Positions 19,131-21,832 of a stretch of 64,000 bases of DNA are shown one piece after another. The stretch comes from Escherichia coli (lineage in GTDB: Bacteria > Pseudomonadota > Gammaproteobacteria > Enterobacterales > Enterobacteriaceae). Under the pieces are notes generated by a model. It did no database searches, was not told the DNA's origin, and worked only from the letters and a program-made list of their open reading frames with translations. The stretch is taken from NCBI RefSeq assembly GCF_024223415.1, contig NZ_CP100500.1, one strand, 5' to 3'. Position 1 is the stretch's first letter. Each line of letters starts with the position of its first letter. The position numbers and the translations under genes are program-made.

Positions 19131-20471
19131 ATGACGACACAATCCAGTCCTGTTATTACTGATATGAAAGTCATTCCGGTCGCCGGACATGACAGCATGT
19201 TGCTCAATATTGGTGGTGCGCATAACGCATACTTCACCCGCAATATCGTGGTACTCACCGATAACGCCGGGCATACCGGCATTGGTGAAGCGCCGGGCGG
19301 AGAGGTGATTTATCAAACACTGGTCGAAGCTATTCCGATGGTGCTGGGCCAGGAAGTTGCGCGCCTGAATAAAGTGGTTCAGCAGGTGCATAAAGGTAAT
19401 CAGGCCGCCGATTTTGATACCTTCGGTAAAGGGGCCTGGACCTTTGAATTGCGCGTTAACGCCGTGGCGGCGCTGGAAGCCGCCTTGCTTGACCTGCTAG
19501 GTAAGGCGCTGAATGTTCCGGTCTGCGAACTGTTAGGGCCAGGCAAGCAACGCGATGCTATTACCGTCCTCGGTTATCTGTTTTATATCGGTGATCGGAC
19601 CAAAACCGATCTTCCTTATCTGGAAAATACGCCGGGCAACCATGAGTGGTATCAGTTGCGCCATCAGAAAGCGATGAACAGCGAAGCCGTTGTGCGTCTG
19701 GCGGAAGCCTCACAGGATCGCTACGGCTTTAAAGATTTCAAACTTAAGGGCGGCGTGTTACCTGGCGAGCAAGAAATCGACACTGTTCGTGCATTGAAGA
19801 AACGCTTCCCGGATGCGCGGATTACCGTTGAACCCAACGGTGCATGGCTGCTTGATGAAGCCATTTCTCTGTGCAAAGGGCTGAATGATGTTCTTACCTA
19901 TGCCGAAGATCCATGCGGCGCAGAACAGGGCTTCTCCGGACGTGAAGTGATGGCGGAGTTTCGGCGGGCGACCGGCTTGCCCGTCGCGACTAATATGATC
20001 GCCACCAACTGGCGCGAAATGGGTCATGCGGTGATGCTCAATGCGGTAGATATTCCACTTGCCGATCCGCACTTCTGGACGCTTTCCGGTGCAGTCCGAG
20101 TGGCGCAGCTTTGCGACGACTGGGGGCTGACCTGGGGCTGCCATTCCAACAACCATTTCGATATCTCTCTGGCGATGTTTACCCATGTGGGCGCGGCGGC
20201 ACCGGGTAATCCTACCGCTATCGATACCCACTGGATTTGGCAGGAGGGCGATTGTCGCCTGACCCAAAATCCGCTGGAGATTAAAAACGGAAAAATTGCC
20301 GTTCCTGATGCGCCCGGTCTGGGCGTGGAACTGGACTGGGAACAGGTACAAAAGGCACATGAGGCCTATAAACGTCTGCCTGGCGGTGCGCGTAACGACG
20401 CAGGCCCGATGCAGTACCTGATCCCCGGCTGGACCTTTGACCGTAAACGTCCCGTTTTCGGCCGTCATTGA
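19131..20471 (+). CDS. gudX: Glucarate dehydratase-related protein (enolase superfamily)
   Basis: 446-aa [34 protein letters not shown]...; tandem paralogue of gudD. Confidence 0.92.
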
Positions 20472-20491
20472 TTCTGAAAAAGGACATAAAT

Positions 20492-21832
20492 ATGAGTTCT
20501 CAATTTACGACGCCTGTTGTTACTGAAATGCAGGTCATCCCGGTGGCGGGCCATGACAGTATGCTGATGAATCTGAGTGGTGCACACGCACCGTTCTTCA
20601 CGCGTAATATTGTGATTATCAAAGATAATTCTGGTCACACTGGCGTAGGGGAAATTCCCGGCGGCGAGAAAATCCGTAAAACGCTGGAAGATGCAATTCC
20701 GCTGGTAGTGGGTAAAACGCTGGGTGAATACAAAAACGTTCTGACGCTGGTGCGTAATACTTTTGCCGATCGTGATGCCGGCGGGCGCGGTTTGCAGACA
20801 TTTGATTTGCGTACCACTATTCATGTAGTTACCGGGATAGAAGCGGCAATGCTGGATCTGCTGGGGCAGCATCTGGGGGTTAACGTGGCATCCCTGCTGG
20901 GCGATGGTCAACAGCGTAGCGAAGTCGAAATGCTCGGTTATCTGTTCTTCGTCGGTAATCGCAAAGCCACACCTCTGCCGTATCAAAGCCAGCCGGATGA
21001 CTCATGCGACTGGTATCGCCTGCGTCATGAAGAAGCGATGACGCCGGATGCGGTGGTGCGCCTGGCGGAAGCGGCGTATGAAAAATATGGCTTCAACGAT
21101 TTCAAACTGAAAGGCGGTGTACTGGCCGGGGAAGAAGAGGCCGAGTCTATTGTGGCACTGGCGCAACGCTTCCCGCAGGCGCGTATTACGCTCGATCCTA
21201 ACGGTGCCTGGTCGCTGAACGAAGCGATTAAAATTGGTAAATACCTGAAAGGTTCGCTGGCTTATGCAGAAGATCCGTGTGGTGCGGAGCAAGGTTTCTC
21301 CGGGCGTGAAGTGATGGCAGAGTTCCGTCGCGCGACTGGCCTGCCGACTGCAACCAATATGATCGCCACCGACTGGCGGCAGATGGGCCATACGCTCTCG
21401 TTACAATCCGTTGATATCCCGCTGGCGGATCCGCATTTCTGGACGATGCAAGGTTCGGTACGTGTGGCGCAAATGTGCCATGAATTTGGCCTGACCTGGG
21501 GTTCGCACTCTAACAACCACTTCGATATTTCCCTGGCGATGTTTACCCATGTTGCCGCCGCTGCACCGGGTAAAATTACTGCTATTGATACGCACTGGAT
21601 TTGGCAGGAAGGCAATCAGCGCCTGACCAAAGAACCGTTTGAGATCAAAGGCGGGCTGGTACAGGTGCCAGAAAAACCGGGGCTGGGTGTAGAAATCGAT
21701 ATGGATCAAGTGATGAAAGCCCATGAGCTGTATCAGAAACACGGGCTTGGCGCGCGTGACGATGCGATGGGAATGCAGTATCTGATTCCTGGCTGGACGT
21801 TCGATAACAAGCGCCCGTGCATGGTGCGTTAA
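20492..21832 (+). CDS. gudD: D-glucarate dehydratase
   Basis: ORF track starts at a TTG at 20468; the ATG at 20492 ([25 protein letters not shown]..., 446 aa) has an AAAGGA SD. Confidence 0.93.

Follow-up and report, generated by a model that had tools for sequence, protein, structure and literature searches.

gudX and gudD of Escherichia coli as an ancient, most likely tandem, gene duplication under equal constraint

Organisation of the gud locus

All positions refer to the window, the whole stretch of 64,000 nucleotides from the E. coli contig NZ_CP100500.1 that was analysed. Three genes were identified in succession on its plus strand. The first gene of the operon, gudP (17777..19129), encodes an MFS glucarate/galactarate transporter and matched TIGR00893 with 538.6 bits. 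It is followed by gudX (ygcY; 19131..20471), encoding a glucarate dehydratase-related protein of 446 aa which was assigned from its ORF, a PDB match and RefSeq, and by gudD (20492..21832), encoding a D-glucarate dehydratase of 446 aa which was assigned with TIGR03247 (898.7 bits, cutoff 828.7 bits). The ATG at 20492 was taken as the gudD start codon, and the TTG at 20468, which gives an ORF of 454 aa, is an upstream extension. The TAA stop codon of gudP and the ATG of gudX are 1 nt apart, and the stop codon of gudX is 20 nt from the ATG of gudD on the same strand. This second spacer (20472..20491, plus strand) carries a Shine-Dalgarno-like AAAGGA. In addition, a 10-bp GC-rich hairpin (21845..21870) lies right behind the gudD stop codon in the gap facing barA and is likely the terminator of the gud operon. 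The 1-nt junction, the 20-nt spacer with its AAAGGA and the hairpin past gudD together indicate that gudP-gudX-gudD is one compact operon. The counterpart operon in Salmonella is named gudT-ygcY-gudD and is controlled by CdaR (PMC11077982).

Downstream of the operon, barA was identified from its ORF and RefSeq at 22064-24820 on the minus strand, convergent to the gud genes. The gap between gudD and barA also contains a REP-like palindrome, GCCGGATAAGGCGTTAACGCCGCATCCGGC, at about 21958-21992. The nearest complete genome found was that of E. coli strain SCU-316, which showed only 3 base differences over the 14.7 kb around gudX and gudD and 1 mismatch across the 2,702 bases of gudX-gudD, where the RefSeq labels are gudX and gudD. 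The two differences outside gudX-gudD are both in barA (22155 and 24377, minus strand) and both are nonsynonymous; BarA has Asp889 and Arg148 in the window, and Gly and Ser respectively in SCU-316. The variant at 22155 (Asp889) is common to locus L005 and not to loci L003 and L004, and position 24377 is outside those loci.

Paralogy of GudX and GudD

Comparison of GudX with GudD by BLASTP showed 281 identical residues over 448 columns (63%), 78% positives and 5 gap columns (E = 0), and the alignment was collinear from end to end. The barrel was more alike in the two proteins (68% identity) than the N-terminal capping domain (52%). The longest perfectly identical block is 28 aa long and comprises residues 257-284 of GudX (19899..19982, plus strand) and residues 258-285 of GudD (21263..21346, plus strand). 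A 12-aa identical run was found in register at GudX 306-317 and GudD 307-318, and six further identical runs had 8-16 aa each. The similarity is far beyond chance. Both proteins also matched the enolase-superfamily barrel model of Pfam, MR_MLE_C (cutoff 29.4 bits), with 170.1 bits for GudX and 163.9 bits for GudD. The initial annotation had described the two genes as adjacent enolase-superfamily paralogues of 446 aa, and the two 446-aa ORFs, the 63% identity and the presence of MR_MLE_C in both bear this out. The two shared peptides it had quoted were present in both proteins, within the 28-aa and 12-aa runs and at matching positions, and the pairwise alignment it had proposed placed the shared segments collinearly. 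The gudX-gudD paralogue pair itself is already known and has been named for decades.

The window GudD was an exact look-up match among the GUDD_ECOLI proteins (GlucD; PDB 1EC7 family; TIGR03247). The window GudX matched E. coli GudX (GlucDRP, YgcY; PDB 4IL0 and 4GYP chain C) over its full length with 1,037 bits, and it occupies the operon position seen in RefSeq genomes. It differs from the K-12 protein in these PDB entries at six positions, which are residue 2 and five internal substitutions (D58E, D65E, E141D, V164L and D234E). Relative to GudD, 37% of the GudX positions are different, the loop around Thr103 is remodelled and the TIGR03247 score is below the cutoff. In the protein collection, several "proteins" of 583-690 aa resemble fused gene calls over gudP-gudX-gudD. 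The 90% cluster for GudX also contains GudP transporters of 450 aa, which has the look of a clustering artefact, possibly through such fusions.

Assignment of the glucarate dehydratase

The NCBIfam equivalog TIGR03247 separated the two proteins, as GudD passed its cutoff and GudX (746.3 bits) failed. The Pfam model MR_MLE_N (cutoff 22 bits) matched GudX with 35.4 bits and gave no match to GudD at E ≤ 0.001, despite GudD aligning with GudX over the whole region. In RefSeq, GudD is named "glucarate dehydratase" and GudX merely "enolase C-terminal domain-like protein", the latter because it scores below the TIGR03247 cutoff. The PDB name for GudX is "glucarate dehydratase-related protein". A literature search on GudX/GlucDRP biochemistry returned nothing usable. 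The GudX product was reportedly described by Hubbard et al. in 1998 as a very poor glucarate dehydratase, and we understand that its real substrate is entered as unknown in UniProt. In the published description of the Salmonella pathway, glucarate dehydration is assigned to GudD and no role is given to ygcY (PMC11077982). The earlier expectation that only one copy would be the efficient dehydratase agrees with the TIGR03247 cutoff, with RefSeq and PDB naming, with that publication and with the reported result of Hubbard et al., with the qualification that GudX is not degenerate. By enzymatic definition, a D-glucarate dehydratase efficiently dehydrates both D-glucarate and L-idarate to 5-dehydro-4-deoxy-D-glucarate. 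Overall, the curated classifications support GudD as the efficient copy.

Active site and remodelled loop of GudX

The active-site positions of GudD were taken to be His32, Thr103, Tyr150, Phe152, Lys205, Lys207, Asp235, Asn237, Glu260, Glu266, Asn289, Asp313, His339, Asn341, His368 and Arg422, on our understanding of Gulick et al. 2000 and UniProt. By alignment, the 16 positions are kept in GudX, with the window allele Glu234 standing opposite Asp235, and none of them varied among 89 other X-type and 58 D-type proteins. The KxK motif and the His-Asp dyad (K205/K207, D313 and H339 in GudD; K204/K206, D312 and H338 in GudX) were unchanged across all 90 X-type and 58 D-type sequences. This Lys-x-Lys motif and the dyad are said, after Gulick et al. 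2000, to be the general acid/base catalysts. The positions aligned with D235/E266/N289 of GudD are E234/E265/N288 in the window GudX, and the 89 other X-type proteins have Asp at the first of these. We take Asp235, Glu266 and Asn289 to be the metal ligands of GudD at the ends of the barrel strands, with Asp235 presumably the first Mg2+ ligand.

Only 14 positions were fixed differently between the X and D clades. Seven of them are in the loop around Thr103 of GudD (Q102W, D105E, T109 lost, I110V, H111N, V112A and T114A), and the corresponding clade-signature loop of GudX around Thr104 (19425..19469, plus strand) has one residue deleted relative to GudD. The window GudX carries the X-clade signature (the loop, C248, N293, E296 and others) and falls in the X clade with a bootstrap of 0.97. 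The loop around Thr103 is, we assume, part of the active-site lid. In the enolase superfamily, capping-domain loops set substrate specificity. Since the differences are in a capping-domain loop of this specificity-setting type, the divergence of GudX looks like changed specificity or loop dynamics and not like lost catalysis.

Natural alleles and selective constraint

Codon 234 of the window gudX (19830..19832, plus strand) is GAA (Glu) and aligns with Asp235 of GudD. It is GAT (Asp) in SCU-316, and this D234E exchange is the sole difference between the window and SCU-316 within gudX-gudD. Asp is also found at this position in K-12, in O157:H7 and in 89 other species, that is, in all other X-type proteins examined. 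An exact 90-mer with the window codon 234 was present in 0 of 4,183 matching complete RefSeq E. coli genomes. The exact window GudX protein was found in 196 contigs and 285 blocks of a public collection, and the Glu234 allele was present in three fetched loci, one of which was identical to the window over 7.3 kb. Glu234 is a real minority allele of E. coli; a sequencing error behind D234E is ruled out by the 196 contigs and the three fetched loci with the same allele.

A second natural allele was found in O157:H7, in which codon 74 of gudX is changed from CAG to TAG (Q74*); the gene is annotated as a pseudogene and gudD is intact. The site corresponds to 1720-1722 of locus L006 (O157:H7 strain Z910) and to 19350-19352 of the window. 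An exact 90-mer with the codon-74 stop was found in 297 of 5,426 complete E. coli genomes. Since the stop is present throughout the lineage and gudD is intact, GudX is dispensable at least in the O157:H7 lineage.

Comparisons with Salmonella and Citrobacter showed a dN/dS of 0.019-0.021 for gudX and 0.018-0.019 for gudD. These values bear on the reading of gudX as a redundant, decaying duplicate heading for a pseudogene, which would fit the score of GudX under the glucarate dehydratase equivalog cutoff, the Q74* stop in the O157:H7 genomes and the exchange of the otherwise invariant Asp234 for Glu in the window allele. However, at about 0.02 the dN/dS of gudX matches the gudD value, intact copies in 89 other species of several orders all carry the 16 active-site residues, and the synteny of gudX is conserved, which makes decay very unlikely. 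Raised dN/dS or repeated independent inactivation in many genera would be expected of a decaying gene, and the reverse was seen except in a few E. coli lineages. A general trend of gudX towards pseudogenisation was ruled out by dN/dS and residue conservation. The retained active-site residues, together with constraint equal to that on gudD, indicate that GudX and GudD are asymmetric because their functions have diverged and not because GudX is decaying. In a Tn-seq study of Dickeya solani, gudX insertions lowered fitness on galactarate, with polarity on gudD possible (PMC10202176).

Distribution and synteny of the pair

The arrangement gudP-gudX-gudD between yqcA and barA was also found in Salmonella, Citrobacter, Buttiauxella and Erwinia. 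In Salmonella (L010) and Citrobacter (L011) a glycerate kinase gene lies between gudD and barA, and none is present there in the E. coli window. In Erwinia persicina (L007) the whole pathway is at the site, where a garD-like gene lies upstream and gudD is followed by garL-, garR- and garK-like genes.

One genome per species was scanned for the GudX-specific loop by means of a degenerate DNA pattern, which gave at least 120 loci. Among the matches listed, an X-type gene was directly followed by a gudD-type gene at 54 of 58 assessable loci in Enterobacterales (55 with L114, where over-long stop-to-stop ORFs overlap), at all three assessable loci in Orbales and both in Pasteurellales, as well as in Tolumonas and in one Proteobacteria MAG. 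A canonical adjacent gudD was found beside none of the 14 Halomonadaceae X-type genes among the matches listed. X-type genes of this family (L089, L110, L124 and L015) were accompanied by genes for GarD, an aldehyde dehydrogenase and a GntR regulator in clusters of the glucarate/galactarate type, and the cluster in some Halomonadaceae genomes also contained a TRAP transporter or a more distantly related gene of the GlucD family. In Halomonas sp. EAR18 the TRAP transporter is directly downstream of the X-type gene, and in Billgrantia a distant GlucD homologue is directly upstream of it. The Halomonadaceae genes with no canonical adjacent gudD suggest that X-type proteins may work without a GudD partner. 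Outside this family, sporadic X-type genes without an adjacent gudD were seen in Pantoea stewartii (L022), Paludibacterium (L030) and "Martelella alba" (L120/L121); one of these cases is in a betaproteobacterium and one genome has two X-type copies.

Age and origin of the duplication

The long identical peptides could in principle come from a recent duplication or from ongoing gene conversion, and the perfect 28-aa block and the several blocks of 8-16 aa are what such an origin would leave in the proteins. The DNA of the two genes showed otherwise. Within the 28-aa block, 68 of 84 nt were identical and the same codon was used at 11 of 27 degenerate codons, which is about the 0.44 expected from codon usage; over the whole genes the same codon was used at 0.47 of identical residues, against the same expectation of 0.44. 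The longest exact DNA run in register was 20 nt, and the Nei-Gojobori estimates were dN 0.30 and dS 1.81, the latter (about 1.8) being saturated. Moreover, the X and D proteins of one genome never grouped together in the tree. A recent duplication or ongoing conversion is thus extremely improbable, and the codon-level comparison ruled out that gene conversion produced the identical blocks. As synonymous sites are saturated inside the 28-aa block as well, it is purifying selection acting on the protein, and not gene conversion, that has maintained the identical peptides.

Phylogenetic placement was carried out by neighbour-joining only, with bootstrap. The X-type proteins formed one clade (0.97 bootstrap) and the D-type proteins of the same orders another (0.96); both clades broadly tracked taxonomy and branched internally in a broadly parallel way. 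When a distant homologue from Halomonadaceae served as outgroup, the X and D clades were mutual closest relatives. The rooting is weak, with GlucD of P. putida (1BQG) placed at a support of 0.34. PDB 3N6H fell in the GudX clade beside a Pasteurellaceae X-type protein and was 74% identical to GudX, and PDB 4G8T fell in the GudD clade beside a Pasteurellaceae D-type protein and was 85% identical to GudD. We take 3N6H/3N6J/3PFR and 4G8T to be the GlucD-family protein pair of Actinobacillus succinogenes. The placement of 3N6H in the X clade and of 4G8T in the D clade shows that the paralogue pair is present far from E. coli. The two-clade tree places the X/D duplication before the last ancestor shared by Enterobacterales, Orbales, Pasteurellales and the Tolumonas lineage.

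The pair may alternatively consist of old paralogues that were brought together when the operon was assembled, or by being transferred horizontally together, with no tandem duplication in situ. The weak rooting leaves room for this, as do the X-type genes that have no canonical GudD-type gene beside them (Halomonadaceae, Paludibacterium and a few Enterobacterales) and the reversed order in Billgrantia, where the d-type gene precedes the X-type gene. However, the two genes are equally long, share a strand and are separated by 20 nt, the X-then-D order recurs in four orders, and the X and D clades were closest relatives with the distant Halomonadaceae outgroup, so that this origin appears unlikely. 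Tandem duplication in situ is judged from these sequence comparisons to be the most likely origin, although it is not strictly proven given the weak rooting. The initial proposal of an old tandem duplication is in line with the saturated dS, with the X-then-D pair in four gammaproteobacterial orders and with the separate X and D clades.

Proposed role of GudX

The crystal entry PDB 4GYP contains one GudX chain plus the wild-type GudD sequence, and we understand it to have been deposited as a heterotetramer. A co-crystal of GudX and GudD does not prove a physiological heteromer. The 1-nt gudP-gudX junction and the 20-nt gudX-gudD spacer indicate that the products of gudX and gudD are made together. 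As 4GYP holds both proteins and the operon coupling is tight, the best reading is that GudX and GudD are made together and can co-assemble.

In the mechanism that we propose, a single ancient glucarate dehydratase gene of the enolase superfamily would have been duplicated into gudX and gudD before Enterobacterales, Orbales, Pasteurellales and the Tolumonas lineage had their last ancestor in common, and the two copies would be co-transcribed with the transporter gene gudP. GudD would convert D-glucarate to 5-dehydro-4-deoxy-D-glucarate. GudX has kept the full catalytic set (KxK, His-Asp dyad, metal ligands, with Glu234 at the first of these in the window allele, and substrate contacts) with a remodelled loop, under selection as strong as that on GudD. 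It most likely co-assembles with GudD and, in such an assembly, would be a subunit of reduced activity or different specificity in the breakdown of acid sugars. The paralogy, its age, the constraint and the conservation of residues and synteny are shown by the sequence comparisons. The heteromer function and the division of labour between GudX and GudD are what we infer from these features. Overall, we hold with good confidence that the pair arose by one ancient, most likely tandem, duplication in which GudD is the efficient dehydratase and GudX a conserved protein that probably co-assembles with it and would be attenuated or differently specific.

A more tentative possibility is that GudX, instead of being a weak spare copy of the glucarate dehydratase, is an obligatory, catalytically competent partner of GudD, or an independent enzyme that acts on an acid sugar of its own or catalyses a reaction of its own (e.g., epimerisation). 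Its specificity would then come from the loop around Thr103, its role would predate the split of Enterobacterales, Pasteurellales, Orbales and Aeromonadales, and X-type genes would also work alone in the Halomonadaceae clusters.

Generally, gudX and gudD represent a textbook-style retained enzyme duplicate, and their paralogy adds nothing new. The present analysis refines this picture with the finding of no gene conversion, the equal constraint, the loop-focused divergence, the wide distribution of the pair and the two natural variant alleles. The role of GudX is narrowed by constraint equal to that on gudD, by the complete active site and by fixed differences that are concentrated around Thr103. 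Finally, two alleles that occur in nature, the O157:H7 knock-out (Q74*) and the ligand variant (D234E), are usable for probing the role of GudX.
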